From the IMG/VR virus record IMGVR_UViG_3300014208_000020, positions 1-33,226 of that record: a stretch of DNA of 33,226 nucleotides. One strand, given 5' to 3'. Shown in pieces: positions 14,038 to 32,210 of this stretch. A program made the translations under genes and the position numbers. The notes beneath the pieces were generated by a model. That model saw nothing but the letters and a program-made list of their open reading frames with translations, was not told the origin of the DNA and ran no database searches. The stretch is from a virus (taxonomy: Duplodnaviria; Caudoviricetes). Each line of letters starts with the position of its first letter. Position 1 is the first letter of the stretch.

Positions 14038-14040
14038 CTA

Positions 14041-16710: not shown

Positions 16711-16721
16711 AGGGAGATAAA

Positions 16722-17024: not shown

Positions 17025-17330
17025 ATGATTAAAACGTTTAAAGTAAAACTATTAAAAAGTTATGAAATAAAACAAAGATTATCAGAAGAAAGGTTAAATT
17101 TTTTAAAAGAAAATGAGTGTTCTTTAAGATCAATAATTAATCGTGATGATAGAGAAGTAATTTTTCACGTGAGCGAATTCGGAGAAAGCAATAAAAAAAG
17201 TAAAGATTTTTATAATGTAGAATATACCTACATTGAATTCAGCGACGAGAATCATCCTTTCAGATTTTATGTCCCAAAAGAATTTGTTACTAAACTGTCA
17301 GGGCGAATAGAAATTAATTTTGATGATTAG
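17025..17330 (+). CDS. small protein with tag variant (SGRIEINFDD)
   Basis: similar to 15909 ORF (FKVK.L...EI; YxPKxxV). Confidence 0.75.
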   Translation: MIKTFKVKLLKSYEIKQRLSEERLNFLKENECSLRSIINRDDREVIFHVSEFGESNKKSKDFYNVEYTYIEFSDENHPFRFYVPKEFVTKLSGRIEINFDD

Positions 17331-17399
17331 GAGAGTAGTATGAAAATAAAAATCGTGAGTTGTGGTTGCTTTATGTAAAGATAATAACAGAGGTGCTTT

Positions 17400-18233
17400 A
17401 TGTTATTATCTATAATAAAATTAAATAAGTTAAATATTCCAATAATTGTTCAAGAGGTTGCATTAGAATGTGATTTATGTAAAAAAAAATGGATAATTAA
17501 AGATATAAGAACTTTTTTAAAACAAGAAAAACAAGGAATTCATAAATGTTTTAATTGTTCAAGATCAAAATGGCAAAAAGGTAGAAGACACTCAGAAGAA
17601 ACGATAAAGAAAATGTCCGATAAAAAAAAAGGGAAAAAAAATATTTTATCAGAAGAGGCACGAAAAAGGGCATCAGATCGCACTAGGAAATATAATTTTT
17701 TAACAAAAGGTAAAACACTAGAAGAAAGATTAGGGAAAGAAAAGTCAGACATTTTAAGAAAAAAAAGAAGTGAAAATGTAAAAGGTGATAAAAATCCAAT
17801 GTTTGGAAAACCAGCTCCTATTGGCTCTGGAGCAAGTAAACAAGGGTGGTATAAAAATATTTATTTTCGATCAATTTTGGAACTTTCTTTTATCATAAAT
17901 TATTTGGAAAAAAATAACATTGAATATATCAATTGTGATCAAAACATAGATTTTAGAATTAAATATTTAATAGATGAAAAAGAAAGAAATTATTTTCCAG
18001 ATTTTTTTCTTGTGAAAGAAAAAATTTTAATAGAAATAAAACCACTTTATTGGAAAGAAAATTGTAATATTGTTAAATTAAAAGAAAAATTTGCTATATT
18101 GTGGTGTTATGAAAAAAAATATAAATATAAACTTTATACTGAAATGGATTTTGATAGATTAAACAAACATGAATTGTCTAATTTAGAAAACTCTGGAATG
18201 TTAAAGTTTAGGAGGGTGAAAAAATCGTTATAA
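17400..18233 (+). CDS. free-standing homing endonuclease, NUMOD3 plus PD-(D/E)XK (TnsA-like)
   Basis: KGRRHSEETIKKMS, KNPMFGK, YFRSILE, YFPDF, LIEIKP. Confidence 0.8.
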   Translation: MLLSIIKLNKLNIPIIVQEVALECDLCKKKWIIKDIRTFLKQEKQGIHKCFNCSRSKWQKGRRHSEETIKKMSDKKKGKKNILSEEARKRASDRTRKYNFLTKGKTLEERLGKEKSDILRKKRSENVKGDKNPMFGKPAPIGSGASKQGWYKNIYFRSILELSFIINYLEKNNIEYINCDQNIDFRIKYLIDEKERNYFPDFFLVKEKILIEIKPLYWKENCNIVKLKEKFAILWCYEKKYKYKLYTEMDFDRLNKHELSNLENSGMLKFRRVKKSL

Positions 18234-18238
18234 AAATT

Positions 18239-19213
18239 GTGAGTTGTGGTAATGCCTTTTCTCGTGTAAATGGCAATCAGTCATTTCTTCTTGAAGAAGA
18301 TGGGAGAAAACTTCTTATAGATGCTGGAACAAGAGTCCCGGCGTTTCTTGACAAAATAGGTATAAAAATATCTGACATTGACGATATTTATATCAGCCAC
18401 CAACACGCTGATCACATTGGAAGTTTAGAAGAATTTGCTTTTCTTCGTTATGATTGGGTAACAAAACCAACTCATTACAAAGATTTTAAATACGGGAAAG
18501 CTCCTAGATTAATTGCTAATGAAGTTCTTATGGATGAACTTTGGAATGAAAGTTTGAAGGGTGGATTAAAATCAATGGAAGGATTTGATAGTAGTTTAGA
18601 AACATTCTTTGAAACAGTTCGTATCCCATCAAATGGGAAATTTGAATGGCAGGGATGGAATGTAAATCTTATACAACAAATCCACGTGATGACTGGGAAT
18701 AGAATTATGCCCACCTATGGACTTCTCTTTAAAAAAGAAGGACACAAAACTGTTTATTTTACAACCGACACACAACATTGTTCTCCAAAACAAGTAGAAA
18801 TATTTTACAAACAGGCAGACATAATCTTTCAGGATTGTGAAACCGCTGGTGTTGATATGTCTTTCAAAGAAGGTTTTGAAGTATATAAAAACGAAGAAGG
18901 AAAAATATTACCTTGGCCTGTTGATGGAATGGAACTTATGGAATTAATAGTAAAAGGAATTGAACCATTTCCGTTTGAAAGATTTAAATTTGGTTCTGGA
19001 GTTCATGCAAACTGGGCACAAATTTCAGGTTATCCTTCTGCTAATTCAATTCGTCTTCCTAAAGAAACAAAGGCAAAAATGTGGCTTTCACATTATCAAG
19101 ATTTTGTAAATGAAAACAAGGATTTTAAGGGGAATTATTGCAACTGGGAAGAAGAAGCAAAAGAAGAAGGATTTGCTGGGTTTGTAAAAGTAGGAATGGA
19201 ATTTGAAGTTTAA
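18239..19213 (+). CDS. metallo-beta-lactamase-fold hydrolase (RNase Z/phosphodiesterase-like); true start uncertain
   Basis: LLIDAG, SHQHADH, TTDT, QDCE, VH, LSHY. Confidence 0.85.
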   Translation: MSCGNAFSRVNGNQSFLLEEDGRKLLIDAGTRVPAFLDKIGIKISDIDDIYISHQHADHIGSLEEFAFLRYDWVTKPTHYKDFKYGKAPRLIANEVLMDELWNESLKGGLKSMEGFDSSLETFFETVRIPSNGKFEWQGWNVNLIQQIHVMTGNRIMPTYGLLFKKEGHKTVYFTTDTQHCSPKQVEIFYKQADIIFQDCETAGVDMSFKEGFEVYKNEEGKILPWPVDGMELMELIVKGIEPFPFERFKFGSGVHANWAQISGYPSANSIRLPKETKAKMWLSHYQDFVNENKDFKGNYCNWEEEAKEEGFAGFVKVGMEFEV

Positions 19214-19242
19214 AGAGTAATTATTTTGAAAATGATTAACTA

Positions 19243-19271
19243 TTGACAAAAAAAATTTTTTAGAGTATAAT
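19243..19271 (+). promoter_or_regulatory. repeated sigma70 promoter
   Basis: TTGACA-N17-TATAAT. Confidence 0.9.
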
Positions 19272-19601
19272 TAAAAAAAGAGAAAGAGAAAAAATCGGGA
19301 ATGTTATTAATTAATTCTTAATAGTTTATTTAATAATGTTTTATTAAACAACATCATTTTGGCTGATTACTAGCAGGAAATGTGCGCTAAGATTTTTTTA
19401 TCGAATAGTAATTGGTTTTGCTAATGCCATCAGTTCTCGCTGAAAAAAAGAAGTTTGGTTCCCTTTCCCATCCAATTTAATTGGAGTTTAATAAGGCGGT
19501 TAAATTTTACCGTAAAATATTTAGGTTTGTGTTTTCTAACCTTAATAAGAAAAATTTGTGGATTGACTACCCGCTAGTATAATTATGAATAGTCTTTTTT
19601 T

Positions 19602-20028
19602 GGGGAGGTGGCGTAATTGGTAGCCGCTACGGACTTATTAATTTGAGCACTATATCGGAAACGATATATGTGAATGGTGTAAATTCAACGAACGGCCTGT
19701 CGAATGGAAGACGACCCAACATTGAGCGAAACTTTATATTGGAGACACTTTAACTGGAAAGATATTACAAGTGACGGTAATAAATGCCAATATGAATGAC
19801 GTGCAGAGACTATAATCACCTACCTAAATTGAAAGATATGGTAAAAGCATAGTCCAGACCACAAACGAACAAAACTATAATAAAAAACGGCACAGGAAGT
19901 TTTGTAATGGGTTCAAGTCCCAACCAATTTAACAGAATTGAGTAAGCCAGAGTTCGGTAGTGAAAACTATAGTGGTAAGAAAATCCGTTGGTCGAAAGAC
20001 CGTGAGGGTTCAAGTCCCTTTCTCCCTA
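19602..20028 (+). tRNA. trnL: tRNA-Leu(TAA), exons 19602-19636 and 19980-20028
   Basis: GGGGAGG..ACGGACTT | AAAATCCGT..GAGGGTTCAAGTCCCT; same architecture as the cyanobacterial trnL-UAA gene. Confidence 0.9.
19637..19979 (+). mobile_element. group I intron in the tRNA-Leu anticodon, no encoded endonuclease
   Basis: U|...G| boundaries; GCAGAGACTA and ATAGTCC core elements. Confidence 0.88.
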
Positions 20029-20032
20029 TTTT

Positions 20033-20108
20033 GCGAGACAAACGAAGCCGGTCGCAGTCGCCTGGTCTTATATGCCAGTTTAGCTGGGTTCAACTCCCAG
20101 GTCTCGTA
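20033..20108 (+). tRNA. tRNA-Ile(TAT)
   Basis: GCGAGAC/GTCTCGT, CTGGT-CTTATAT-GCCAG, CTGGGTTCAACTCCCAG; atypical D arm. Confidence 0.7.
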
Positions 20109-20143
20109 TTTTTTAAACTGTTTTTTAAGGAGGCGTATCAAGA

Positions 20144-20661
20144 ATGAAAACTTACTTTATTGGAGACACACATTTTTTTTCCATCAAAAAATTTTAATAT
20201 TTGAACCATCAAGATTGCTTCTTGGTGAAACAATGGATGCTCATAATTGGGAAATTGTAAAAAGATGGAACAGTGTTGTTAATCAAGAAGACATTGTTTA
20301 TCATCTTGGTGATGTTGCTTTTAAACTGGGTTCTAAAGAAGGGGAGCTTAAAAACATAATTTATAATCTTAATGGACATAAAAAACTTATTATGGGAAAC
20401 CACGATACAAAAGATAAACAATTTTATTTGGATCTTGGATTTGAAGAAGTTTTTGAAGAAGATATTCTTGTTGATGGTATTTGGTTAAGCCATAAACCAA
20501 TTTTAGATCAAAATAAATTGAATGGCAAAATAAACATTCATGGGCACGTTCATAGTAATTCTCATAGAGACGAAGATACTCCAACGAAAAATCTTCATCT
20601 TTATATCAATGCTTCTATCGAAGTTTTGCCAGATTTTAAACCAATGTTGTTTAAAAATTAA
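20144..20661 (+). pseudogene. calcineurin-like phosphoesterase, frameshifted at T8 (20173-20180)
   Basis: MKTYFIGDTHF in one frame; HLGD, GNHD, LSH, HGHVH in another. Confidence 0.8.
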
Positions 20662-20672
20662 GGAGAAAATAA

Positions 20673-20894
20673 ATGGAAAAAATATTAGCTATTGTTTTAT
20701 TTTTTGTTAATTTTTTCAGTTCTATTGCTTTGTGTTTTTCACAAGGGAAAACAATAGATGGTGTTTTGATACTTGGTATGATTATATTATCGTTGTTTTT
20801 GATGGCTGTAGAAATGATGTCTTTGTCAGTAATAATTCCTGAAAAATATCAAACAAAGATTAAAGAAAAAGAAGAAACAGGAACCAAAATTTAA
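20673..20894 (+). CDS. small membrane protein
   Basis: AGGAG SD, 2 hydrophobic segments. Confidence 0.7.
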   Translation: MEKILAIVLFFVNFFSSIALCFSQGKTIDGVLILGMIILSLFLMAVEMMSLSVIIPEKYQTKIKEKEETGTKI

Positions 20895-20926
20895 AACTAT
20901 GTATGGTATTTTATTAAGGAGAAGAA

Positions 20927-21424
20927 ATGTTAAATCTATTTTCAGACGGAAGGATGGAAGAAACTTCAAAAGCAAAAAGTGCAGCAGAAAGAATACAGAG
21001 GGGAAAGCAAGCAGAACTTGAAACAAACTGTGGTCCATTAGCAGAAACTTTATCAAAAATAAAAGACATATGCGAGCCAAAAGCGCTCGACGCCGAAAGA
21101 TCCATATATTTTTCTTACGAGGATTATCGCGTTGTTTATGAGGAAATTTACCATTATTCTAATTTTAGAATAATAAAATTGAATGGATTTTTTAAAACCA
21201 AAGAAACTTGTATTTTTAGTGGACAAGTTGGATACAATTGGAGTCGTGTTTTTGAAAATAAATTAGATTACTGGTTTACAAACTTAGAAATAAACATGGC
21301 ATATAAAGAAGCAATAGAAAGAATTCACAGAGAAATGTATGAATACATTATTTCAAAAGAAGAAGAAAAAATTAAAAATATTATTATTGAAACAGCAATG
21401 ATTTCAGTTAATATGAACTTTTAG
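20927..21424 (+). CDS. hypothetical protein
   Basis: AGGAG SD. Confidence 0.7.
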   Translation: MLNLFSDGRMEETSKAKSAAERIQRGKQAELETNCGPLAETLSKIKDICEPKALDAERSIYFSYEDYRVVYEEIYHYSNFRIIKLNGFFKTKETCIFSGQVGYNWSRVFENKLDYWFTNLEINMAYKEAIERIHREMYEYIISKEEEKIKNIIIETAMISVNMNF

Positions 21425-21446
21425 TTCTATTAATTAAAGGATAATT

Positions 21447-21683
21447 ATGAGTGAAAAAAATTGGAAAATTGGAGACGTTGCTATTTGCATTGTTGAAAAT
21501 GGATTATGTGATGGAATATTAGGAAAAGAATATAAAGTAGTTGGAATATCAAATAGATTTCCTGGCGATTTAATTTTTTCTATTCATCCTTTTGAACGTA
21601 ACCCTTATGGAATTTCTGTTTGCTCTAAAAAAGAAAGATTTAAGAAAAAAAGTCAACAATTACTCCTTTTTGAAGATGAATAA
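21447..21683 (+). CDS. small protein with C-terminal tag (SQQLLLFEDE)
   Basis: WKIGD N-terminus; shared tag. Confidence 0.8.
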   Translation: MSEKNWKIGDVAICIVENGLCDGILGKEYKVVGISNRFPGDLIFSIHPFERNPYGISVCSKKERFKKKSQQLLLFEDE

Positions 21684-21686
21684 CTA

Positions 21687-21715
21687 TTGACAAAAAAAAT
21701 TTTTTAGAGTATAAT
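21687..21715 (+). promoter_or_regulatory. repeated sigma70 promoter heading the tRNA cluster
   Basis: TTGACA-N17-TATAAT. Confidence 0.9.
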
Positions 21716-21811
21716 TAAAAAGTAAAAAAGAGAAAAGATTATTTAGATTAAATCAACCTGACTAGTTGTAAAGGTAATTAATAAGTCATATATTATTATA
21801 GAGATTAATAA

Positions 21812-21885
21812 CGGGTATTGGGCAAAAGGTTAGCCACCTGATCTGGGATCAGGGCATCAAGTGTGTTCGATTCACACATACCCGA
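21812..21885 (+). tRNA. tRNA-Pro(TGG), C at position 33
   Basis: CGGGTAT/ATACCCG, CCTGA-TCTGGGA-TCAGG, GTGTGTTCGATTCACAC. Confidence 0.8.
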
Positions 21886-21937
21886 ATAACGTGGATAAGT
21901 TTTCTTGTTTATAACACGTAAACAAAACAAGAAAAAA

Positions 21938-22084
21938 AGCACATTGGCGTAATCGGGAATAAATACCGACGAAGTGTCGTTTTGTAGACACAGAGACATT
22001 TTTTACTGGAATAAGTTGACAGTAAAATAAACAACGTCCAAGATAATAAACTTGGAGATATGGGTTGGAATCCCATTTGTGTTT
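21938..22084 (+). ncRNA. tRNA-like RNA with multi-hairpin expanded core
   Basis: AGCACA/TGTGTT acceptor, TGGCGTAATCGG D-arm start, ATGGG-TTGGAAT-CCCAT T arm, 3 internal hairpins. Confidence 0.5.
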
Positions 22085-22093
22085 TTATTTTTT

Positions 22094-22196
22094 GCCCTCT
22101 TAGCTCATTTGGTTTAGAGCGATTGCCTTGTCGTGTATTTTTACAAAAGAATATAGGACAAGCAATAGGTGCTCGGTTCGAATCCGAGAGTGGGCA
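22094..22196 (+). tRNA. tRNA (Thr-TGT or Val-TAC) with a 28-nt insertion in the anticodon loop
   Basis: canonical TAGCTCA..GGT..AGAGC and GGTTCGAATCC; ATTGC/GCAAT stem extended by a long hairpin. Confidence 0.7.
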
Positions 22197-22202
22197 TTAC
22201 GA

Positions 22203-22274
22203 CGCAGGAAGAGAAAAGGTGACTATCCGGTCTCATAAACCGTGACATTCTGGTTTCGAGATCCAGTCCTGCTA
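22203..22274 (+). tRNA. tRNA-Met(CAT), initiator-like, divergent
   Basis: C1 mismatch, GCAGGA/TCCTGC, CGGT-CTCATAA-ACCG. Confidence 0.6.
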
Positions 22275-22314
22275 TACTCCTTGGTCGTCAGGGGAAAAGT
22301 TCGACCATTTTTTT

Positions 22315-22345
22315 GCCGCTGTGCTGGAATTGGTATAGGCGTTAG
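22315..22345 (+). pseudogene. 5' fragment of a tRNA-Leu-like gene
   Basis: GCCGCTGTGCTGGAATTGGTA; acceptor strand pairs with TAGCGGT at 23243-23249. Confidence 0.55.
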
Positions 22346-22414
22346 TTTTATTTTCGAACTGGAATACTCTATGTCATATATAATATGTAAAGATAATATT
22401 ATGAGGGTTCGAAA

Positions 22415-23164
22415 TTGACAACAAAATATACAAAAGAAAATTTAGAGGAAATTGTAAAGGAAAGTTTTTCTATATTTGAAGTTTTAAGAAGATTGGAATT
22501 AGTTTGTTCTGGTGGAAACCACTCGCACATTTCTAAATTAATAAAAGATTTTGAAATAGATAAGAGTCATTTTTTAGGACAAGGGCATAGTAAAGGCAAA
22601 ATATTGGGACCTAAATATACAAAGGAAACTTTTTTAGAAACTTTAAAAAAGGATACTAAAATTTTAGGTCATAGATTAGTAAAGAGATTGGTGTTTTTTG
22701 GGATCAAAGAAAGAAGATGTGAGATATGTAAAAATGATATATGGAACGAAAAACCAATACCGTTAGAATTAGATCATATTGATGGAGAACACTCCAATAA
22801 TGAATTAGAAAATATTAGAATATTGTGTCCAAATTGCCACGCACAAACAGATACCTATTGTTCTAAAAATATGAACAAAAAAATTTCTATCATAAAGTTA
22901 GAAAAGAAAAAATATTTTTGTGATTGTGGAAACGAAAAACATCGTAGTTCTAAAAAATGTAAAATCTGTAGTAATAGAAGTTTAGAAAAGTTTAACAATG
23001 GTTTGAAAATAGAGTGGCCTTCCGATGAAGAACTTTTAAAAGAACTAGAAGTTAAATCATATTTAGAGTTAAGTAAAGAGATTGGCGTGTGTGATAATTC
23101 TATAAGAAAACATTTAAAAAAAAGGATTGGATATTTTCCATCAAAGCGTAAAGTTAATAATTAA
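22415..23164 (+). CDS. HNH homing endonuclease
   Basis: CEIC...LELDHIDG...NN.LENIRILCPNCH, CDCG...CKIC, C-terminal HTH-like segment. Confidence 0.88.
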   Translation: MTTKYTKENLEEIVKESFSIFEVLRRLELVCSGGNHSHISKLIKDFEIDKSHFLGQGHSKGKILGPKYTKETFLETLKKDTKILGHRLVKRLVFFGIKERRCEICKNDIWNEKPIPLELDHIDGEHSNNELENIRILCPNCHAQTDTYCSKNMNKKISIIKLEKKKYFCDCGNEKHRSSKKCKICSNRSLEKFNNGLKIEWPSDEELLKELEVKSYLELSKEIGVCDNSIRKHLKKRIGYFPSKRKVNN

Positions 23165-23176
23165 AGATTCATATTT

Positions 23177-23250
23177 GCCCGAGTAGGAAAACTGGTAAAT
23201 ATACCACACTTAGATTATAGGTCGTGTGAGTTCAAATCCCACTAGCGGTA
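23177..23250 (+). pseudogene. chimeric/degenerate tRNA-Leu(TAG)
   Basis: GCCCGAG..CTGGTAA..CTTAG, T arm GTGAGTTCAAATCCCAC; own acceptor stem mismatched. Confidence 0.5.
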
Positions 23251-23320
23251 TTTTTTATAAGGAGTGATTGATGTATTTTATTCGTAATTGTGTAAATGAT
23301 ACTATATAATTAGTTTTTAT

Positions 23321-23401
23321 GCGTCATTATGTGAATCAGCAAACACGGGCGACTGTAAATCGCTTCCTTCGGGGTACTAGGGTCGGCACCTAGATGGCGC
23401 A
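23321..23401 (+). tRNA. tRNA-Tyr(GTA)
   Basis: GCGTCAT/ATGGCGC, GGCGA-CTGTAAA-TCGCT, long variable arm CCTTCGGG. Confidence 0.8.
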
Positions 23402-23404
23402 ATA

Positions 23405-23461
23405 TAGACACACACAGCAAACAAAAAACAACAATCTGTTAAATTGTATAAGTTGTGTCTA
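23405..23461 (+). ncRNA. ACAGCAA stem-loop RNA, copy 4
   Basis: TAGACACA/TGTGTCTA, ACAGCAA at 23414-23420, ACAAT-CTGTTAA-ATTGT inner hairpin. Confidence 0.75.
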
Positions 23462-23471
23462 GTTTTTTCTT

Positions 23472-23543
23472 TCTTCGATAGCTCAGTGGTAGAGCAGGGT
23501 GCTGTTAACACTCAGGTCGCTTGTTCGAATCAAGCTCGAAGAG
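23472..23543 (+). tRNA. tRNA-Asn(GTT)
   Basis: canonical cloverleaf, GGGTG-CTGTTAA-CACTC. Confidence 0.92.
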
Positions 23544-23546
23544 TAA

Positions 23547-23657
23547 AGTATTGTGGTGAAAAGATTTAACACAATGGCGAGGTAGCTCCTCTTGACGGTC
23601 TTGCTATAAGATGCCATAGTTCGCAACAATGAAAGGTTTAATTCCTTTCCAATACTT
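23547..23657 (+). ncRNA. tRNA-like RNA with branched anticodon domain
   Basis: AGTATTG/CAATACT, D arm, ATGGC/GCCAT enclosing two hairpins, GAAAGG-TTTAATT-CCTTTC. Confidence 0.55.
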
Positions 23658-23763
23658 TTAAAGAATATTATTGGTGGCAAGTACGATTATAGTTTGGCTA
23701 GGAAACATGATCCGGGGGCTGAAATTCCAAGGAGGTTAATAACTCTAGTATTCTTTTTTTTAC

Positions 23764-23838
23764 GCGTCATTACTATCAAAAGGTTAGATTCCCATTCTGA
23801 TAAAATGGAGGTTAATGGTTCAATTCCATTATGACGCA
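23764..23838 (+). tRNA. tRNA-Ile(GAT)
   Basis: GCGTCAT/ATGACGC, CCATT-CTGATAA-AATGG, GGTTCAATTCC. Confidence 0.82.
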
Positions 23839-23873
23839 ATGTATTAGTATTTATTTTGGAGATTTCATAAACA

Positions 23874-25067
23874 ATGAACAACAACGCAAAACGCCTTACG
23901 AGAGGTTTGGCTGCAAATATAAAAGAATTAATAGAGGTTGCATTTGAAGATCCGTCAACTAAAAGAGAAATTTGTAGAGGTGGCGGAAGTAATGGTGGGC
24001 AAATAACAAAATTACTTATGAACAAACCAACTGAAAACATACGAATTTCAAAAGAAGCATTGAAATTATGTATGGAAAATAACGTTTTCTTATATGATTA
24101 TTTTTTTCTTGGCAGGGATAATGCTAAACTAAAAGAAAAATATGGCAACTTTTTTTCGTCAAACTGGAAAAGTGCAGAAAAATGCCATGCAGTCGGTCAT
24201 TATATTACAGCAGATCACAATATTCCTAATACTTGCATTATAAATGAAATATTAGAAATAGCGGAAGAAGATATTGAAAAATTAACAGAGGAAAGAATAA
24301 TAAAAATATTAAACTCTCAATCTCTTGATTTTATAACTATTGAAGAAAATGATCTTTTGAATAAAAATGGATTTACTTTTTCTGGAACAAAAGAGGAAAG
24401 GGATTCAATTTGTAGTGAAAAAATAGATATAACAGATGTTTGGCTTACACCAGATCATATTATTAGTCAATTTTTTGAAACTTCTGGTTTAGATATAAAC
24501 CATTGTCTTGATCCTTGTGCTTGTGATGGAAGATGGTTAAAAGGAAAAGGTATCTCTGGAGATATTTTACCTATGAATAAATCAGTTGCTTGGCAAGATT
24601 TTTTAACGGTTGAATCTGTTCCAGAAGAAATTAAACATATAATTGGAAATATTCCATTTTCTTTAACTAAAGAATTTGTTGAAAAAGCATTTTTACTAAG
24701 AAGTGAAGCATATTTTTTAGTGAATGGTGACACTATAATGAATCATTATAATGGACATATAAAAAAAATATGGATAATCAATGGAATCGAAGGAAACCAA
24801 AAAGATTTTAGAAGTAGATGTGAATTTGAAACAATTGTTTTAAAAAAATCTGCTTTGTGGTGTTGTATAGTTCACTTAACAAAAGAAAAACAAGAAGAAT
24901 TTATAATAGAAAAAGATATTTCAAATGAACAAAAAAGGGATGGATTTCATGTAGCATTAGGAAGAAATACATTCATAAAAAGTTTAGTTCCTATTGAGAA
25001 TAATGAAAAAATAATAAGATTGCAAACAAAAGGAACGATTGATTATAAAAAGAAAAAGATAAGTTAA
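23874..25067 (+). CDS. two-domain protein with C-terminal N6-adenine methyltransferase-like domain
   Basis: DVWLTP, LDPCACDG, QDFL, IIGNIPF (NPPF variant). Confidence 0.65.
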   Translation: MNNNAKRLTRGLAANIKELIEVAFEDPSTKREICRGGGSNGGQITKLLMNKPTENIRISKEALKLCMENNVFLYDYFFLGRDNAKLKEKYGNFFSSNWKSAEKCHAVGHYITADHNIPNTCIINEILEIAEEDIEKLTEERIIKILNSQSLDFITIEENDLLNKNGFTFSGTKEERDSICSEKIDITDVWLTPDHIISQFFETSGLDINHCLDPCACDGRWLKGKGISGDILPMNKSVAWQDFLTVESVPEEIKHIIGNIPFSLTKEFVEKAFLLRSEAYFLVNGDTIMNHYNGHIKKIWIINGIEGNQKDFRSRCEFETIVLKKSALWCCIVHLTKEKQEEFIIEKDISNEQKRDGFHVALGRNTFIKSLVPIENNEKIIRLQTKGTIDYKKKKIS

Positions 25068-25071
25068 TTTT

Positions 25072-25215
25072 AGAAACATAGAACGACTAGAATGAACAAT
25101 GGATGAGGTCGGATTCCATACAGGATTAAGGGTAAACAAGTATGTAGCAAAAGTTATGACTTGCCTAGCGTATTTCACAGAAGGTAAATCTGTGTCGAGG
25201 TTCATTTATGTTTCT
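25072..25215 (+). ncRNA. unassigned structured RNA
   Basis: AGAAACATA/TATGTTTCT and ATGAAC/GTTCAT closing stems with internal hairpins. Confidence 0.4.
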
Positions 25216-25221
25216 TTATTT

Positions 25222-25305
25222 AGAAGGTATCCGGACGGCTCCGGGACCGGACTTGAAATCCGGAACGCGGGGAAACTCGTGGAGGATCGACACCTCTATC
25301 TTCTG
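25222..25305 (+). tRNA. tRNA-Ser(TGA)
   Basis: CCGGA-CTTGAAA-TCCGG, long V arm, G discriminator; long D stem. Confidence 0.75.
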
Positions 25306-25436
25306 TAATTGGTTCCTGACGAGGAAATCGAAAGTATTACGCGCCTCTCCCTAACTAGAATTGGGATGCTCACTATGTAGGTCAAATCGTGAAGTTGACG
25401 CTGGCACCACAGCAGAGGTACTCACTGTGGTATTTT

Positions 25437-25522
25437 GGGATAGACAAGCAGTAGGGAATTGTCTTGGATTGCTAATCCAAAGGAAGATGAAAATCTTTGA
25501 GAATCGTATTCTCGTTATCCCG
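25437..25522 (+). tRNA. tRNA-Ser(GCT)
   Basis: GGGATAG/TTATCCC, TTGGA-TTGCTAA-TCCAA, long V arm. Confidence 0.75.
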
Positions 25523-25528
25523 TTTTTT

Positions 25529-25614
25529 GGCACAAATAATCTAATCGGTATTAGAGACGGTCTGCAAAACCGTCCTGTGAAAACAGTTGTGTAGTTCGAC
25601 TCTACTTTGTGCTT
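25529..25614 (+). tRNA. tRNA-Cys(GCA) with tRNA-Sec-like 8/4 fold and long V arm
   Basis: GGCACAAA/TTTGTGCT, TCTAAT-CGGT-ATTAGA, GACGGT-CTGCAAA-ACCGTC, CTGT-GAAA-ACAG, GTAG-TTCGACT-CTAC, U discriminator. Confidence 0.78.
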
Positions 25615-25619
25615 TTTCG

Positions 25620-25647
25620 AAGGAATACAAATTGTATTCCTTTTTTT
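25620..25647 (+). terminator. intrinsic terminator ending the tRNA cluster
   Basis: AAGGAATACA-AAT-TGTATTCCTT plus T-run. Confidence 0.75.
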
Positions 25648-25661
25648 ATTTAGGAGGTATT

Positions 25662-26237
25662 ATGAACTTTTTTAATTTTTTTAAAAAGAAAATCGTTAGA
25701 GAAAAGGAAATTATTACAATATATAAAAGTCCAACAATTTATATTAAAAAAAGAGATACAAGTTTTTTGTCTTATAGTATAAATAATTATATCGTTAAAT
25801 TTGATGGAAATAATTACATTTCTAGTCAAAAATTTCAACGCCTTGAAACTTACAAAGAAACATTACCTGTCGCTTTTATAGAATTTTGCGGATATAAAGT
25901 ATTTAAAAAAAATGAAGAAGAAATAAATAAAATGATAATTGACGTTTATGTTAAAAATTTAAATTTCGCTAGTTCTTTGTTTTCTATAATATCATCATTC
26001 CCTGATGCTGTGGAATCTTTTGATAAATTAAATAAAAACGAAGAAGTTAAAAAAGATCAAAGTGAATTTAGTGACAACTTTTCTTACTTGTTTGGAAAAC
26101 TAAGAAAAAATGAACTGGATTTACAAATAGGGATGGGGAATTTATACGACGATCTCAAGACCCTTATGGATGAATTAGAAGAGAAAATATTTACAGAAAT
26201 TTCTTCTGAAACAAAAATTAAAAAAGAAAAGTATTGA
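25662..26237 (+). CDS. hypothetical protein
   Basis: AGGAGG SD before ATG 25662. Confidence 0.72.
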   Translation: MNFFNFFKKKIVREKEIITIYKSPTIYIKKRDTSFLSYSINNYIVKFDGNNYISSQKFQRLETYKETLPVAFIEFCGYKVFKKNEEEINKMIIDVYVKNLNFASSLFSIISSFPDAVESFDKLNKNEEVKKDQSEFSDNFSYLFGKLRKNELDLQIGMGNLYDDLKTLMDELEEKIFTEISSETKIKKEKY

Positions 26238-26262
26238 CAAAAAAATATTTTTAATGTATAAT
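26234..26262 (+). promoter_or_regulatory. repeated sigma70 promoter
   Basis: TTGACA-N17-TATAAT. Confidence 0.9.
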
Positions 26263-26279
26263 TAAATAAAGGAAAATAA

Positions 26280-26600
26280 ATGACAAAATACAGAACAGTT
26301 TCAAACGGATATTATGATGAACTTGAATATCAAAAAGAATTTAAGTTTCTTTTCTTTAAAAGAAACTCTTGGCATTCTGTTTGGCGACCTTATTATGATG
26401 AAATTTGGGGAAGAACTCTCGACTATAGACATAATTATATAAATTCGATCAACACTAACATAAAAGATTTTGTAACTAAGTGGCCTAATATTAAAAATTA
26501 TTTTGATTGGGCACTTGAAGAACAAGAAAAACTTGAAGAAAAAATAAATAAAGAAAGAATAAAAATAGAATTAAAAAAACAAGAAGTAAAATATTTTTAG
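26280..26600 (+). CDS. hypothetical protein
   Basis: AAGGA SD after promoter. Confidence 0.7.
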   Translation: MTKYRTVSNGYYDELEYQKEFKFLFFKRNSWHSVWRPYYDEIWGRTLDYRHNYINSINTNIKDFVTKWPNIKNYFDWALEEQEKLEEKINKERIKIELKKQEVKYF

Positions 26601-26623
26601 AGTATAATTAAATAGAGGGAAAA

Positions 26624-26896
26624 ATGAAAACAGAAGACATAAAAATAGGAATGAAAATAAAAATTCCTACCGTAAAAAGAACATCTGGTGCTATTTTAAC
26701 TAAAGATTGTTCTGCTTATTTACACGCAACTGAACTTAATCAAAATTTTTTATATATTGTTAGTGGCTTTTATAATAACGGTCATGGCGATGAAGTTACA
26801 GTGGGTGCCACTAAAAAAATTATGAAAGTTCTTTTTATGCAAAAGATTTGCAACCATATTCAAATCAAATTTTTCTTTTTGAGGATGAATAAATGA
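26624..26896 (+). CDS. tagged-family small protein with probable frameshift at A7 (26813-26819)
   Basis: IKIGM N-terminus; adding one A gives ...DLQPYSNQIFLFEDE*. Confidence 0.72.
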   Translation: MKTEDIKIGMKIKIPTVKRTSGAILTKDCSAYLHATELNQNFLYIVSGFYNNGHGDEVTVGATKKIMKVLFMQKICNHIQIKFFFLRMNK

Positions 26897-27189
26897 AAGA
26901 ATACAAAGTTGGCGACACAATTACAATCAGAAAAGACATCACAATAGACAATATAAATGAATTAATGAAACCATATTTTGGAGCAGTTATGGATAATTGG
27001 GAACATTATTACAATATGTTAGTTGATAATAATTTTCTTGAGAAAAGATTTAAAATAATAGAAAGAAAAAACTGGATATATAGGCAAGGTGATGTTTATA
27101 AACTTGATTGGAAAAGACCTAATTATATTAGTCCAGAGTTATTTGTAGAAAGTTTTTCTCGGCAAATAATTTTATCTTGGGAGGACTAA
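26893..27189 (+). CDS. small protein with tag variant (SRQIILSWED)
   Basis: YKVGDTITIR N-terminus; similar to 16722 ORF. Confidence 0.78.
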   Translation: MKEYKVGDTITIRKDITIDNINELMKPYFGAVMDNWEHYYNMLVDNNFLEKRFKIIERKNWIYRQGDVYKLDWKRPNYISPELFVESFSRQIILSWED

Positions 27190-27357
27190 ATGAAAACATT
27201 TGAAGATGAATATAAAAATCTTAAAAACAACTTACCAAAACTTAAAACTTATTGGAATTGGTATAATTTTTGTAGTGGTTTAAGAAAAGAAATTGGATTG
27301 AATCAAAATCAATTTAACGTTCTTGTTCAACAAATGAGAGAAATATATTTGAAATAA
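27190..27357 (+). CDS. small hypothetical protein (55 aa)
   Basis: GGAGGA SD plus ATG. Confidence 0.55.
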   Translation: MKTFEDEYKNLKNNLPKLKTYWNWYNFCSGLRKEIGLNQNQFNVLVQQMREIYLK

Positions 27358-27363
27358 TAATAT

Positions 27364-27475
27364 GGGGTAGAAAATAAATCGACAGATGAAATCGTTTGAG
27401 AACGACGAAAATGCCTAAATTACGAAAGTTCGAGATTTTATTTGAACGGGAGAGAGTTATTCCCCTACTCCACCA
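27364..27475 (+). ncRNA. miniature tmRNA-like RNA (112 nt)
   Basis: GGGGTAG/CTACTCC-A-CCA with G3.U70, stemless D-loop ending ATCGAC, 11-bp P2-like helix, 5-bp T stem. Confidence 0.7.
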
Positions 27476-27492
27476 TTTTAAAGAGGTTAAAA

Positions 27493-27738
27493 ATGAAAGA
27501 AGAAGACATTAAGGTTGGTGATATTGTAAAAATTAAATCAAAAACAGTTCCCAATTTCGAGCGAGACAAAATTATTCCTTTTGAAGGAGTAATACAAGAA
27601 ATAAAAACCTATTCTCATTTAAGCATGTATTACGGTGAAGAAAAAAACAAATTACTTTTTATTATAAATTGTAGTTTTTATTGCTTTGAGGATTTTGAAA
27701 AAAAATCACAACAACTATTTCTTTTCGAGGATGATTAA
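27493..27738 (+). CDS. small protein with C-terminal tag (SQQLFLFEDD)
   Basis: IKVGDIVKI N-terminus; GAGG SD. Confidence 0.8.
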   Translation: MKEEDIKVGDIVKIKSKTVPNFERDKIIPFEGVIQEIKTYSHLSMYYGEEKNKLLFIINCSFYCFEDFEKKSQQLFLFEDD

Positions 27739-28047
27739 ATGATTAATTTAGATGATAAAATTTTTAAACAAAAAGAATTAAACATTAATAATTTTAAATT
27801 TAGAACAAGAGAAGATTCTTTAAAAACTTATAATGATCTTGGTGTAGGAAGATTTTTTCTTGAATTTTTTTGGGACAGAATAGAGCACGATTTGCCAGAA
27901 GTTTTTACAATAGAAAACAGAATAAATCAAGATAGGATATTTTTTTACGATAAAAATCTTGAAGGGTTATTTAATATAACATATATTTCTTTTATTTGTT
28001 ATTTTGAAAAAAAATCACAACAACTTTTTCTTTTTGAGGATGAATGA
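27739..28047 (+). CDS. small protein with C-terminal tag (SQQLFLFEDE)
   Basis: shared tag. Confidence 0.8.
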   Translation: MINLDDKIFKQKELNINNFKFRTREDSLKTYNDLGVGRFFLEFFWDRIEHDLPEVFTIENRINQDRIFFYDKNLEGLFNITYISFICYFEKKSQQLFLFEDE

Positions 28048-28048
28048 T

Positions 28049-28327
28049 ATGGAACTTGAAATTGGAAAACATTATATCGTTTGGAATGCTTATAGTCAAT
28101 CTTACACTTCTGGGTATTATCTTGGAGAGTCCAACAAAGCAATGATATCCTGGACTAGTCAAAGTTGGTATACACCTATTTATGCCCCTGGTTTTGCTTT
28201 TTCAAGTAGTCCTGGCAGAAGCGCCACAGGGAAAAAAGCAAATGTAGTTCCAAAAGATGGGTTTATGATTCTTGTGTGTTTATCTGATATTGATTTACCA
28301 AAGCGGTCATTAGTTGATCCTGAATGA
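28049..28327 (+). CDS. hypothetical protein
   Basis: SD from the upstream tag; LEIGKHY N-terminus. Confidence 0.65.
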   Translation: MELEIGKHYIVWNAYSQSYTSGYYLGESNKAMISWTSQSWYTPIYAPGFAFSSSPGRSATGKKANVVPKDGFMILVCLSDIDLPKRSLVDPE

Positions 28328-28350
28328 AAAATTTTGTAAGGAGGTGAATT

Positions 28351-28593
28351 ATGGACGAAAAACTAGAAACAATCGAATTAGAACTTACTGATAAAATGAT
28401 TGATTTTATTTATAGTAATGAAAAAGATTGGATTGTTGGAGATCTACCGGACAGCAGTCAAGATGATTATTTTCTTTGGCTTGGTGAAAACGGAAAACTA
28501 TATCTTACAAAAGAGAAAACAAAAGAGACAATTTGTGTAAAATATTTAAAGAGAACTTTTAATTTTGAAAATCTTTTTAAGGAACAGAAATAA
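28351..28593 (+). CDS. hypothetical protein
   Basis: AAGGAGG SD. Confidence 0.7.
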   Translation: MDEKLETIELELTDKMIDFIYSNEKDWIVGDLPDSSQDDYFLWLGENGKLYLTKEKTKETICVKYLKRTFNFENLFKEQK

Positions 28594-28824
28594 ATGAACC
28601 AACACAATTTTAAAATAGGTGAAAGATTTCTTATTAAAAATCTTGAATATAATAGCATATGGAATAACAAAAACACAGAGGTTTATGATTTAAGTTCTGA
28701 ACGTTGCTACATTATGTTAATTGATAATAAAAGTATTACAACTTCATTTTCATTAACTGATACAAAACTTATAACAAATCATTTCCAATTTAACCAACGA
28801 ATATTACTTTTTGAAAATGAATAA
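28594..28824 (+). CDS. small protein with C-terminal tag (NQRILLFENE)
   Basis: FKIGE N-terminus. Confidence 0.8.
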   Translation: MNQHNFKIGERFLIKNLEYNSIWNNKNTEVYDLSSERCYIMLIDNKSITTSFSLTDTKLITNHFQFNQRILLFENE

Positions 28825-28882
28825 CTATTGACAAAAAAAATTTTTTAGAGTATAATTAAAGAGTAAGGAAGAAAAAAAAATG
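28792..28882 (+). repeat. about 90-bp direct repeat (tag codons, promoter, SD, ATG); second copy 29177-29266
   Basis: near-identical: one substitution and one A indel. Confidence 0.9.
28828..28856 (+). promoter_or_regulatory. repeated sigma70 promoter
   Basis: TTGACA-N17-TATAAT. Confidence 0.9.
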
Positions 28883-29209
28883 TTAGACGAAAAATTAAAA
28901 ATATTTAAAATTGGTGAAAAAGCAACTTACGTCTTTCAAGAAGATTTGGAAAATTATTTTGTTGAAGATGGTGCTGAAATGACTTTTGTTAGGTATAATG
29001 AAATGGATAAAAAATATCCATACAGTTTTTCTGTTAAAGCAAGAGAATTTATATATCCAGAACACGTTGAAAACGTAGATGAAGACAGTGATGAAGATTA
29101 TGACGAAGAAGATGTAATTCTTGGTGAATACATTATTAAAAATATTGATTTTGCACTCAATGAAGTGAAGAAAAAAAACCAACGAATATTACTTTTTGAA
29201 AATGAATAA
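28880..29209 (+). CDS. small protein with C-terminal tag (NQRILLFENE)
   Basis: FKIGE N-terminus, acidic insert. Confidence 0.8.
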   Translation: MLDEKLKIFKIGEKATYVFQEDLENYFVEDGAEMTFVRYNEMDKKYPYSFSVKAREFIYPEHVENVDEDSDEDYDEEDVILGEYIIKNIDFALNEVKKKNQRILLFENE

Positions 29210-29212
29210 CTG

Positions 29213-29241
29213 TTGACAAAAAAAATTTTTTAGAGTATAAT
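29213..29241 (+). promoter_or_regulatory. repeated sigma70 promoter
   Basis: TTGACA-N17-TATAAT. Confidence 0.9.
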
Positions 29242-29263
29242 TAAAGAGTAAGGAAGAAAAAAA

Positions 29264-29455
29264 ATGAATGAAAATAAAGAAATTATCCGATGGTTAAAAG
29301 AACGCCTTGAAGAAGCAAAAACAGAGAAAGCCAAATTTGGATCAAATATTCCACTTTATAGTTTCTGGGATGGGAAAGAGCAAACCATTGAAGAAACTCT
29401 TAGTAAGTTGGGCGTAATTGTTGAAGTAAATTTTAAGCAGACATCAAATGGATAA
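29264..29455 (+). CDS. hypothetical protein
   Basis: SD plus ATG after promoter. Confidence 0.65.
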   Translation: MNENKEIIRWLKERLEEAKTEKAKFGSNIPLYSFWDGKEQTIEETLSKLGVIVEVNFKQTSNG

Positions 29456-29759
29456 AATAGTTTACGAAAAAACAAGATTTATATTAACAAAAATTGCCAA
29501 TTTATATTCTAAGCGTTTAAATGTAAAATTTTCTTGCGTTCATGAAATTAGTTTAGAAGAAATTGATAATGATGAATATTATCTTGTTAATGATAACACG
29601 AAAGAAAAAATTTTTATGTTTGATCAAAAATTTGTTAGTAGTTCTATTAAATATTATGGGTGCAAAGATGCTAAAAAAATGATTTTTGGTTTGGCTCTTG
29701 GAGGATTTTTAAATGAAAAACATAAAAGCAGGAATGAGAGTAAAAATTCCAGAGCGTGA
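29448..29759 (+). CDS. hypothetical protein
   Basis: overlapping coupled ORF. Confidence 0.6.
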   Translation: MDKIVYEKTRFILTKIANLYSKRLNVKFSCVHEISLEEIDNDEYYLVNDNTKEKIFMFDQKFVSSSIKYYGCKDAKKMIFGLALGGFLNEKHKSRNESKNSRA

Positions 29760-30006
29760 TGAATATGGAAACCTTTTAGAAACCAAAACAACTGGAATTT
29801 TGATTGCCTGTCTTAAAAAAGGTTATCCAAATTATTGTGTTAGATTTGATAGCGAAAATGTTTTTGCTCATAATTATTATCCAGGACCAGAATTTTGTAT
29901 TTTTCATACTGGTGAAGAAAATAAGAATTTGAGAATTTATTACTATTATGGTATAGAAGATGTTGAACCATTTTCACAACAGTTATTCCTTTTTGAAGAT
30001 GATTAA
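29713..30006 (+). CDS. small protein with C-terminal tag (SQQLFLFEDD)
   Basis: IKAGMRVKI N-terminus. Confidence 0.8.
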   Translation: MKNIKAGMRVKIPERDEYGNLLETKTTGILIACLKKGYPNYCVRFDSENVFAHNYYPGPEFCIFHTGEENKNLRIYYYYGIEDVEPFSQQLFLFEDD

Positions 30007-30009
30007 CTA

Positions 30010-30038
30010 TTGACAAAAAAAATTTTTTAGAGTATAAT
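30010..30038 (+). promoter_or_regulatory. repeated sigma70 promoter
   Basis: TTGACA-N17-TATAAT. Confidence 0.9.
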
Positions 30039-30310
30039 TAAAGAGTAAAGAAAAAGAAAATTTGTTGGATTGTCCAAAGATTGACATCTAATGAACGAAA
30101 GTTCATTGTTGAATTATTTTAGGAGGGATTACTTGAAAACTTGAATAAACTTTCTCATTGTGAGAAAAAATTAAGTGTGTTTAGGGCCACCATTTAAAAC
30201 AAAGTTTTAGTGCTGGCATAATATCTGAAATTATTCCGTTGTTTCTATCCTAATTAGGATGGACGTTATGTGATAATTATTTTCTTTTAGAACTTAGGAG
30301 GTTCAATTAT

Positions 30311-30712
30311 ATGATTACTATTTACAAGGTGACAAAAACTGACGAGAGGCTTTTCGCTGACTATGTGGTTCCTGGTGTTTCTGCTGACCAGATTCTCGTG
30401 ACTTCGGTTGCGGCTCGTTACGAAGATTTCGAGGGAGTGAAGAAAGGTTCCACTTTCACCGTCAAGATTGCTGCGGCAAATCGTGGTTCGTTCGGCGTGT
30501 TCAAGGAACTCAATGCTGAAACATTGAAAGATGTTCAGAACGTTCCTTTCGAGTTCGACATCAACTCCCTTTCTTGGAATGTGAGCAACGGTATTCTTCG
30601 TGTGTCCATTCCTCGCAAGGCCGAGTTTGTTGGCAAGACGGTTGTTGCTGACACAAGCGCCGAGATTTTTGGTGAAGTTCTCCCAGAGAACTCTGTCACT
30701 GCTACTAAGTAG
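30311..30712 (+). CDS. small heat-shock (Hsp20/alpha-crystallin-like) protein
   Basis: VPGVSADQILV and NGILRVSIPRK; AGGAGG SD. Confidence 0.7.
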   Translation: MITIYKVTKTDERLFADYVVPGVSADQILVTSVAARYEDFEGVKKGSTFTVKIAAANRGSFGVFKELNAETLKDVQNVPFEFDINSLSWNVSNGILRVSIPRKAEFVGKTVVADTSAEIFGEVLPENSVTATK

Positions 30713-30822
30713 TTGACAATGGCGGGAATGAGATAAGTCTCGCCGTATTGGGTAAGGCCGCAACGGATAAGCGGTAAGGATATAAATTTCTGTGAAACGT
30801 GTTGTTCTTAATTTATTAGAGA

Positions 30823-30961
30823 TTTGGGTTCGATTTGCAGTTCCAAGGAGTTGCATAAGTAATACCTCTCTATGGTTTGGAGTATATGATAATTATTTAA
30901 TAATCTATTCGCTACTTCCCATAACTCTATTTCACAAAGCGGTTCAATTCCGCAACCCAAA
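30823..30961 (+). ncRNA. tRNA-like RNA (acceptor stem and T arm only)
   Basis: TTTGGGTT/AACCCAAA, GCGG-TTCAATT-CCGC. Confidence 0.4.
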
Positions 30962-30972
30962 AAAAGTTTAAG

Positions 30973-31160
30973 AAAAGTAATGACAGAACGGATTGTTGTA
31001 GCGTGCGAACGTGCGAACTAGGTATCAAGTGAAATGTTAACGAGTTGCAAATTAATCATTAAGGCAAAAATCTATTAGATCTAGCATGAGAAGAAATGCC
31101 GGTGTTAGAAAGTAACTCCATTTGAAAATCGCAGATTTGGTTCAATTCCAAGAACTTTTT
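30973..31160 (+). ncRNA. large tRNA-like RNA, copy A
   Basis: D arm TGACAGAACGGATTGTTG, GNRA hairpin, long insert, T arm TTTGG-TTCAATT-CCAAG. Confidence 0.6.
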
Positions 31161-31188
31161 AAAAAACTATTTTATTAAGGAGAAAAAA

Positions 31189-31575
31189 ATGAGTGATATT
31201 CAAGAAAATGCTTTTTTTGATAGCAACGAAAATTTAGTTGATAGATTTGATGAAGATGTCGAAGAAATGGACGAGGAAGAAATCGAAAACGAAGAAGAAA
31301 ACGATCTTGAAGAAAACTCATTTTCTTTAATAGATTTTAATGAAGATTATGATTATGATGAAAATGATTCTTGTTTTTTCGAAGATGAGGAAATTTTGTC
31401 AATCGTTCGCCATGGAATTATTTGGAATATTATTGGTTTCACTAAAAATAAACTTTATATTTTACAAGACCCACAATCAAATTGGATTATTTTCGTTAAT
31501 GACTATGACATTGATGATAATCAAACCGAAAAATCGAAAAAAGAAGAACATTCTGATGGACTTTTTGAACTTTAA
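31189..31575 (+). CDS. highly acidic hypothetical protein
   Basis: AGGAG SD; D/E-rich N-terminal half. Confidence 0.72.
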   Translation: MSDIQENAFFDSNENLVDRFDEDVEEMDEEEIENEEENDLEENSFSLIDFNEDYDYDENDSCFFEDEEILSIVRHGIIWNIIGFTKNKLYILQDPQSNWIIFVNDYDIDDNQTEKSKKEEHSDGLFEL

Positions 31576-31591
31576 GTAATAAATAAATTAA

Positions 31592-31795
31592 CTAAGTAAT
31601 GGCAGAACGGATTGTTGCACTATGAGAATAGGTAATTTTAGGTATCACTAGAGAACGGAAGCACTCATTGTATTTGAACTTTGAATGTTAGATAAAATTT
31701 ATTTTTATTTGATGTGATAATAGTAAAAGAAAAGTCATCACCAACCCTCTAGCCGGTGATAAATTACGGACTTGATTCAATTTCAAGAACTTAGT
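31592..31795 (+). ncRNA. large tRNA-like RNA, copy B
   Basis: same 5' and 3' motifs as copy A, with compensatory changes. Confidence 0.62.
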
Positions 31796-31817
31796 TAATT
31801 TTTTAAAAGGAAAAATA

Positions 31818-32183
31818 ATGACAGAAGAAGAAATAATGAGAACAAACTCAAAAACAATATTTAAATTTACAAAAAGCATGAGTGGTTTAATTTTAGTTAA
31901 TTTAAAAGCAAATATTGTTTGTGATTTACAAGGATCTCCTTTGAACGCAGATGTTGCTGGAGGTTCACATAATAGCAAAAGTTTTCTTTTTTACTTTGGA
32001 AATTTTCACAACAAAGAAGATTTTAAAGACCAACAAGGGTGTAGTAAATACTTACACGATGGTGGAAATACTGCTGAAGGTCTTTATAATAACCAAAATT
32101 ATAAAAAATATTTTATGTGGTGGATTGAATGTGATATAGTAAAATTATATTCAAATCAAATATTTCTTTTCGAGGATGATTAG
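31818..32183 (+). CDS. small protein with C-terminal tag (SNQIFLFEDD)
   Basis: shared tag; WW motif like the 8732 ORF. Confidence 0.8.
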   Translation: MTEEEIMRTNSKTIFKFTKSMSGLILVNLKANIVCDLQGSPLNADVAGGSHNSKSFLFYFGNFHNKEDFKDQQGCSKYLHDGGNTAEGLYNNQNYKKYFMWWIECDIVKLYSNQIFLFEDD

Positions 32184-32210
32184 CCCATTTATTTGGGCGT
32201 TTTTTATTTA
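32183..32210 (+). terminator. intrinsic terminator
   Basis: GCCCA-TTTATT-TGGGC plus T-run. Confidence 0.6.

Follow-up and report, generated by a model that had tools for sequence, protein, structure and literature searches.

Among the described systems closest to the RNA considered here is the tag-less tmRNA of mycobacteriophage DS6A, which is reported to inhibit the host tmRNA in E. coli (PMC4131195 and PMC11915505, citing Mao et al. 2009), an effect said not to depend on whether the RNA can be charged (PMC4131195). DS6A is the one phage example named in the available text of these papers, where its role in infection is left open. The bases of tmRNA contacted by SmpB include A15, U17, C18, G19 and A334 (PMC8363625), and the resume point in E. 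coli is set by an A at position -4 (PMC2481249, PMC8363625). Here we describe a mini-tmRNA gene at positions 27364-27475 of a stretch of 33,226 nt (the window, i.e., the whole DNA that was analysed). The gene is real; it is also under selection, since dozens of viral contigs carry the tag-less form, with its alanine identity and its inner loop conserved. Unreported in the literature searched are this conserved loop, which we read as non-coding, and the D/T elbow. Such RNAs are natural variants for asking whether phages switch off or rewire trans-translation, a nearly universal process and an antibiotic target, and the family offers a route to asking what CDS-less tmRNAs do.

The window is an AT-rich contig, the whole of its genome record, with seven tRNAs called by ARAGORN, and it encodes HNH endonucleases, an RNA ligase, a NAPRTase, an Apyc1-like hydrolase and many small ORFs of no known family. 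Since a scan of 47 ORFs of the contig brought up no virion gene, we infer the phage origin from the phage-type gene content and the relatives on viral contigs; the DNA likely belongs to a large phage. The search for a host through the NAPRTase (best identity 59%) found none. The ends of the contig (1-98 and 33129-33226) are identical over 98 nt and contain the start of a repeated promoter, indicating either that the molecule is circular or that it is part of a larger phage and flanked by repeats. About 11 near-identical and perfect sigma70-type promoters were noted, e.g., at 91, 1876, 8003, 9062, 10146, 14041, 19243, 21687, 28828, 29213 and 30010. Small ORFs in 16459-32187 share, in at least eight copies, an LFLFEDD-like motif at the C terminus, where it overlaps with the following ribosome-binding site, and those scanned had no Pfam or PHROG match. 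Three regions (3662-7747, 12098-15907 and 18239-19213) hold isochorismatase-like, PP2C phosphatase and kinase-like genes together with those for the RNA ligase, NAPRTase and Apyc1-like hydrolase, a set that likely represents NAD-salvage and counter-defence cargo. A tRNA at 22094-22199 (+), overlooked by ARAGORN and scored at 50.6 bits by Rfam, has a hairpin of about 31 nt inserted in its anticodon loop; by eye it is likely Thr(UGU), with the hairpin either intron-like or a sign that the gene is disabled. A match to the Twister-P5 ribozyme lies at 11259-11316 (+), directly behind an SPFH gene (38.1 bits against a gathering score of 37.6).

The mini-tmRNA gene occupies a 135-nt intergenic gap, one ORF ending at 27357 and the next starting at 27493, and its parts and possible promoter are as follows.

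26234..26262 (+): sigma70-type promoter with a 12/12 consensus match, of a repeated promoter family, 1.1 kb upstream of the mini-tmRNA and its possible transcript source on the strength of the consensus match only
27364..27475 (+): mini-tmRNA gene, 112 nt, tRNA-like domain with a short P2 extension (fold, finder, and covariance models at 57.7 bits, E about 9e-14, and 33.9 bits, E about 6e-6)
27364..27370 (+): 5' strand of the acceptor stem, G3 at 27366, 7/7 pairs with 27465-27471
27371..27383 (+): stemless D loop, 13 nt, keeping the counterparts of E. coli A15, U17, C18 and G19 (contacts according to PMC8363625, available text) and missing the GG elbow pair
27383..27393 (+): 5' strand of P2a, 11 bp with 27434-27444 (first seven pairs: 74/77 cells paired in 11 members)
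27398..27418 (+): ENDENA* frame of the first-pass annotation, unconserved and judged coincidental from comparison with relatives
27400..27403 (+): 5' strand of the inner stem, pairing with 27428-27431 (three pairs, of several types: 32/33 cells paired in 11 members)
27404..27427 (+): conserved loop GACGAAA-N2-GCCTA-N4-ACGAAA, 24 nt here and 23 nt in 14/15 relatives
27413..27418 (+): GCC TAA, weakly similar to a resume site and, if used, read as Ala-stop (3.9 bits, 68/200 shuffles equally good)
27428..27431 (+): 3' strand of the inner stem, from the fold
27434..27444 (+): 3' strand of P2a, from the fold
27445..27447 (+): connector AAC, by alignment GAC in E. coli and 16/23 members, with the A334 equivalent retained
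27448..27464 (+): T arm, 5 bp in the fold, with the atypical loop AGAGTTA at 27453-27459
27465..27475 (+): 3' strand of the acceptor, U70 at 27469, A73 at 27472, encoded CCA

All four stems are fully paired. The features listed in the first-pass annotation, made from the sequence alone, all stand where it placed them: the alanine-identity acceptor with G3.U70, A73 and encoded CCA (here 7/7 pairs), the stemless D loop ending in ATCGAC (13 nt), the P2-like helix (11 bp, with 40 nt inside) and the T arm with an atypical loop (5-bp stem). It had overlooked the 4-bp inner stem (27400-27403/27428-27431) that closes the 24-nt loop, and that GG is missing from the D loop. The window element is more than chance. 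A generic finder of tRNA-like domains matched the window once, at 27364-27475, and matched 1/300 random windows of like composition; the folding z-score of the 112 nt was -2.26, with 5/200 shuffles as stable. Contigs from two runs of two studies (one run possibly the record's own source) span all 112 nt with 0 differences, so the gene is not a misassembly. No terminator-like site was found between the promoter at 26234-26262 and the mini-tmRNA.

Standard tools overlook this RNA. Detection by ARAGORN or by the Rfam tmRNA and mitochondrial tmRNA models, which the first-pass annotation had put forward, gave nothing for the window copy: ARAGORN made no tmRNA or tRNA call at 27364-27475, RF00023 remained below its gathering threshold, also in a 181-nt search, and RF02544 had no match in the window. 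Neither did the permuted tmRNA models (RF04321, RF01849-51), the order of the domain being standard and not 3'-half-first, and RF00005 (tRNA) did not match the element, in which the D stem and anticodon arm are absent. Among the loci of the 15 relatives, RF00023 exceeded its gathering score of 47 bits in ten (53-72 bits), L355 among them, and left L335, L341, L346, L351 and L230 unmatched; ARAGORN called no tmRNA in the 52 loci scanned. Mini-tmRNAs thus fall into an annotation blind spot of ARAGORN (52 loci) and Rfam (window copy). A subfamily covariance model built without the window (R1) gave the window copy 57.7 bits, a partly circular result as the pattern that found its members took its loop in part from the window. 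For this reason a second model (R2), made from 26 matches of domain-only scans, is the fairer test, and it scored the window copy at 33.9 bits and the next best match at 11.3.

The relatives are miniature as well, which rules out a one-off deletion; together with the agreement between contigs of the two studies this disposes of a simple deletion or misassembly, the alternative in which relatives would be full-length. The claim of a pseudoknot-less miniature tmRNA was borne out by short relatives with covarying stems and by the identical copy in the second study. Domain-only scans, whose patterns required just the two ends of the tRNA-like domain, returned 71, at least 120 and 108 loci and contained at least 96 distinct domains: 45 full-length, 49 minis (66-140 nt, 36 lineages), the window's and that of DS6A. 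In one of these scans 59/71 loci were rejected as lacking the full domain, two of them being permuted tmRNAs. Two minis among the domain-only matches listed share the window's inner loop. Across all scans there were at least 62 distinct mini relatives of 66-140 nt. The loop leads back to the domain: 5/5 matches of a loop-only scan of viral contigs lie within a tRNA-like domain, and loop-led scans gave 15/26 non-self matches with the domain in metagenomes and 1/4 in genomes, where the sole true match is a 3.7-kb MAG contig (11/27 and 3/4 matches were rejected for want of the domain, and L356 is the window's own contig). Two further loop variants came among 31 loci from a scan for the domain plus GCCYA. 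The homologue search thus yielded a subfamily with the window's loop of at least 15 distinct non-self members, all short (106-128 nt) and 51-63% identical to the window copy.

Covariation in 11 members is extensive, with 77/77 cells paired in the acceptor, 74/77 in P2a, 32/33 in the inner stem and 55/55 in the T stem, and 0/2000 shuffles reached the paired-cell count for any of the four stems; the counts omit five members with a 3' insertion, and the statistics ignore kinship. Changes on both sides were found in 16 of the 23 consensus pairs. An expression describing the motif, picked after viewing the data, matched 13/36 mini interiors against 1.0 in shuffles. G3.U70 and A73 were present in 13/13 distinct relatives from three loop-led scans and, since these scans never required either, alanine identity is conserved without having been asked for by the pattern. 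Both features and the T arm are retained in all 16 members, and the window copy keeps, by alignment, equivalents of all five SmpB-contact bases named above; the equivalent of G333 is an A in this copy only.

The surroundings of the mini-tmRNAs are varied. Many are situated among tRNAs, and 95 flanking ORFs searched against Pfam contain no protein neighbour common to the mini loci and no integrase. No SmpB gene was found in 98 mini loci and the window (flanks of a few kb only), one was found in 1/57 full-length tmRNA loci (short flanks), and no locus held both a mini and a full-length tmRNA, again within short flanks. In one phage clade (L260 2046-3374, L271 379-1722 and related loci) a single-ring ClpA/B-like ATPase gene lies within about 1.3 kb of the 112-nt mini-tmRNA; this neighbourhood is not independent support because it concerns one related clade only. 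Searches for a cultured phage carrying the window's loop subfamily found none: blastn of the element against cultured phages gave no match, blastn of three relatives gave T-arm matches only, none covering 80%, and the seven inspected of 348 cultured-phage record matches were full-length or permuted tmRNAs or unrelated, with no mini form. An exact 16-mer scan of viral contigs produced 32/32 unrelated matches, and no RNA run was present among the sequencing runs listed with the element. Permuted tmRNA genes (103-120 bits) absent from the annotation were seen in the cultured phage records L412, L413, L415 and L416. Close to the genome end of Lactococcus skunaviruses (L410, L411, about 640-740), next to tRNA matches, lies a stretch resembling a T arm that the annotation omits and in which Rfam recognises no tmRNA. 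The literature searched, which was short of most subscription journals, reports no conserved non-coding mini-tmRNA loop, no elbow that has lost both GG from the D loop and UUC from the T loop, and no multi-member family of phage mini-tmRNAs. According to the available text of PMC11915505, its tmRNA database holds 97,179 sequences, and some minis may be among them.

The first-pass annotation had also pointed to a vestigial tag in the inner part of the RNA. The letters GAG AAC GAC GAA AAT GCC TAA are present at 27398-27418 and the encoded ENDENA is similar to ANDENYALAA, the E. coli tag as read from L389, but the frame depends on two changes private to the window copy. The spacer it needs is 2 nt here and 1 nt in 15/15 relatives, and its stop comes from a C-to-U change that makes GCCTA of what is GCCCA in 15/15 relatives. 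The AAC codon, moreover, falls within one strand of a covarying stem, and an A at -4 is missing at all of the first four codons (GAG, AAC, GAC, GAA). In the same frame the relatives read DEKPK*, DERPMQRK... and the like, 8/15 having no stop before the CCA end. A frame with an A at -4 and a degron-like end was found in 0/16 minis, compared with 41/45 of the full-length viral tmRNAs listed, and stops are not enriched in mini interiors (6/36 stop-free against 7.0 in shuffles). As the frame is private to the window copy, a tag is unsupported; the likeness is judged to be due to chance, which had been allowed for from the start, and the conserved loop is read, on comparative grounds, as non-coding. 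Perhaps it descended from the resume-site strand. A likeness of the loop to a hammerhead or K-turn was dropped, there being no third helix and no Rfam match.

The explanation we favour, with moderate confidence, is that the gene encodes a tag-less mini-tmRNA, likely of a phage, which would be charged with alanine, bind the SmpB of the host and oust its tmRNA from stalled ribosomes while supplying no degradation tag. A host-type promoter would drive transcription of the RNA together with small ORFs, and tRNA-processing enzymes would excise it. AlaRS would charge it through G3.U70 and A73, SmpB would bind the face formed by the D loop and connector, and EF-Tu the acceptor and T arms. The charged RNA could then sequester SmpB and/or enter stalled ribosomes, where it would take over the chain, add alanine and offer no message, so that ssrA tagging of proteins would drop during infection. 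The conserved loop may serve as a structural or binding module, possibly derived from the resume-site strand, that gives a second grip on SmpB. The decoy for SmpB suggested in the first-pass annotation is, by analogy with the DS6A precedent, a live reading. Its other proposal, a rescue of ribosomes without a degron, is conceivable. Some reservations apply: RF00023 recognises neither the window copy nor five of the 15 relative loci, the likeness of the loop to a resume site is weak, the window copy alone has the connector AAC and the tip GCCTA, which could be decay, and the retained alanine marks exceed what a pure sponge needs, because inhibition by the DS6A form is described as independent of chargeability (PMC4131195); these marks fit a cooperative rescue equally well.

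In such a cooperative rescue, the charged RNA together with SmpB would take the stalled chain, add one or several alanines and free the ribosome, the gain being recycling of ribosomes for phage translation. The retention of G3.U70, A73 and the T arm in all members agrees with it, as do the polyalanine synthesis supported in vitro by a TLD fragment with SmpB (PMC3929946, PMC2481249) and the persistence of CDS-less tmRNAs in mitochondria and two plastids, for which rescue of this kind has been proposed (PMC11915505). We nevertheless judge it unlikely, as inhibition is what has been reported for the DS6A form, release would need another factor and none is common among the 95 flanking ORFs, and alanine tails act as ClpXP signals (PMC8012679, available text), so tag-less rescue need not be degron-free. 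A bolder proposal, which strikes us as rather improbable, is that of a widespread unannotated class of phage mini-tmRNAs that enter ribosomes, in which the repurposed resume-strand loop either clamps SmpB twice or lets one or two codons be read, bare Ala or Ala-Ala ends replace the host tag, and the window copy, with a rebuilt elbow, goes unseen by standard tools.

Only a small chance is given to a decoy that plays no part at the ribosome and would draw off host defence nucleases directed at the shape of tmRNA or tRNA. CoCoNuT systems have SmpB-like domains predicted to bind tmRNA (PMC11090510), and the contig has other likely counter-defence or RNA-repair genes (Apyc1-like hydrolase, RNA ligase, tRNAs); such targeting is, however, only predicted in the available text, the retained alanine identity would be unexplained, and the data contain no link to a defence system.

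An equally low probability attaches to a functional family of which the window copy is a decaying member. The copy has private changes at the D-loop GG, T loop, connector and loop tip and a 1-nt insertion, it is 51-63% identical to its relatives, and it has no Rfam match. Against decay, the four perfect stems, the five SmpB-contact bases and CCA are retained, the sequence is unaltered in the second study's run, and two other lineages drop GG and TTC together. Of 23 sequences taken from scans with no condition on the T loop, 20 carry the D-loop GG together with the T-loop TTC and three lack both (Fisher p 6e-4), namely the window copy, L346 and L044, the latter two with AG in the D loop and G55-C56. 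We propose that the elbow of the window copy is remodelled rather than decayed, as it can be drawn with A.G, U-A and A.U replacing G.psi, G-C and T.A.

Very unlikely, in our estimation, is a micro-message, in which a resume site persists in the loop and the ribosome translates GCC before it stops, leaving an Ala-Ala tag. The GCC is invariant in 16/16 members and the best resume-like site in 11/16, in the window copy it is followed by TAA and preceded by an A at -4, and tags of two amino acids exist in Fermentibacterota (PMC11915505). It is also the only start in the ENDENA* frame with both an A at -4 and an Ala codon, and would give Ala-Ala, a likely degron. A sister group of mini-tmRNAs of 127-133 nt (L391, L404, L407, L392, L401 and L409), which supplied 7/20 loci of one scan, the remaining loci being left unused, has a canonical-looking resume context, UAACY-GSC, four of its six members having been found by a pattern that required that context. 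Its AGUA/GAA internal loop we take to be loop-E-like. The resume score of the window's GCC, however, is 3.9 bits (median of real sites, 10.8), a value equalled by 68/200 shuffles and, with the unbiased set, by 11/200; the profile is blurred because contexts were chosen automatically and a few look wrong. In the GCC frame 7/15 relatives never stop, the codon after GCC being CAN in 15/15, and members of the sister group have either the stop or CGA, 3/6 each, the varying base being able to pair with G either way. The 30S beak, moreover, is encircled by the full-length RNA in a ring of at least 81 x 97 A (PMC8363625, available text), for which 40 nt seems too short.

It is scarcely credible that ENDENA* is a real or vestigial tag, in spite of its likeness to the E. 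coli one, or that the element is a remnant of an integration site or half of a permuted tmRNA, the PHROG label 'RDF' 1.5 kb from one relative notwithstanding, as the frame is private, the domain has both of its ends and these pair, the Pfam search of the 95 neighbouring ORFs gave no integrase and no permuted model matches in the window.

Compared with known systems, the window copy shares with the standard bacterial tmRNA (RF00023; E. coli ssrA, 363 nt) the acceptor, the stemless D loop ending in UCGAC, P2a, the connector, the T arm and the SmpB-contact bases, but lacks about 250 nt, including the pseudoknots and the tag frame (full-length controls measure 275-421 nt), and its canonical elbow of D-loop GG and T-loop UUC is changed. 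The TLD-only tmRNA of DS6A (JN698994.1 28478-28560) resembles it in having a tRNA-like domain, G3.U70, A73 and a short P2 and no pseudoknots or tag frame. DS6A is known to be phage-borne, whereas phage carriage of the window copy is deduced; the window copy is of 112 nt and DS6A of 83 nt, its P2 is in two parts ending in the conserved loop of 23-24 nt where DS6A has one small hairpin, and it has an altered D/T elbow and an encoded CCA. By the description in PMC11915505, the tmRNAs of Fermentibacterota carry the Ala-Ala tag that GCC TAA would give here, although the window's stop is unconserved in relatives and its resume context weak. The CDS-less organellar tmRNAs (mitochondrial RF02544; plastid, about 65 bp, PMC11915505) likewise have no tag frame and, as far as the available text describes them, may act with SmpB on incomplete mRNAs. 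Those RNAs, however, are cellular and paired with their own SmpB, whereas the RNA of the window is extra to a host tmRNA.
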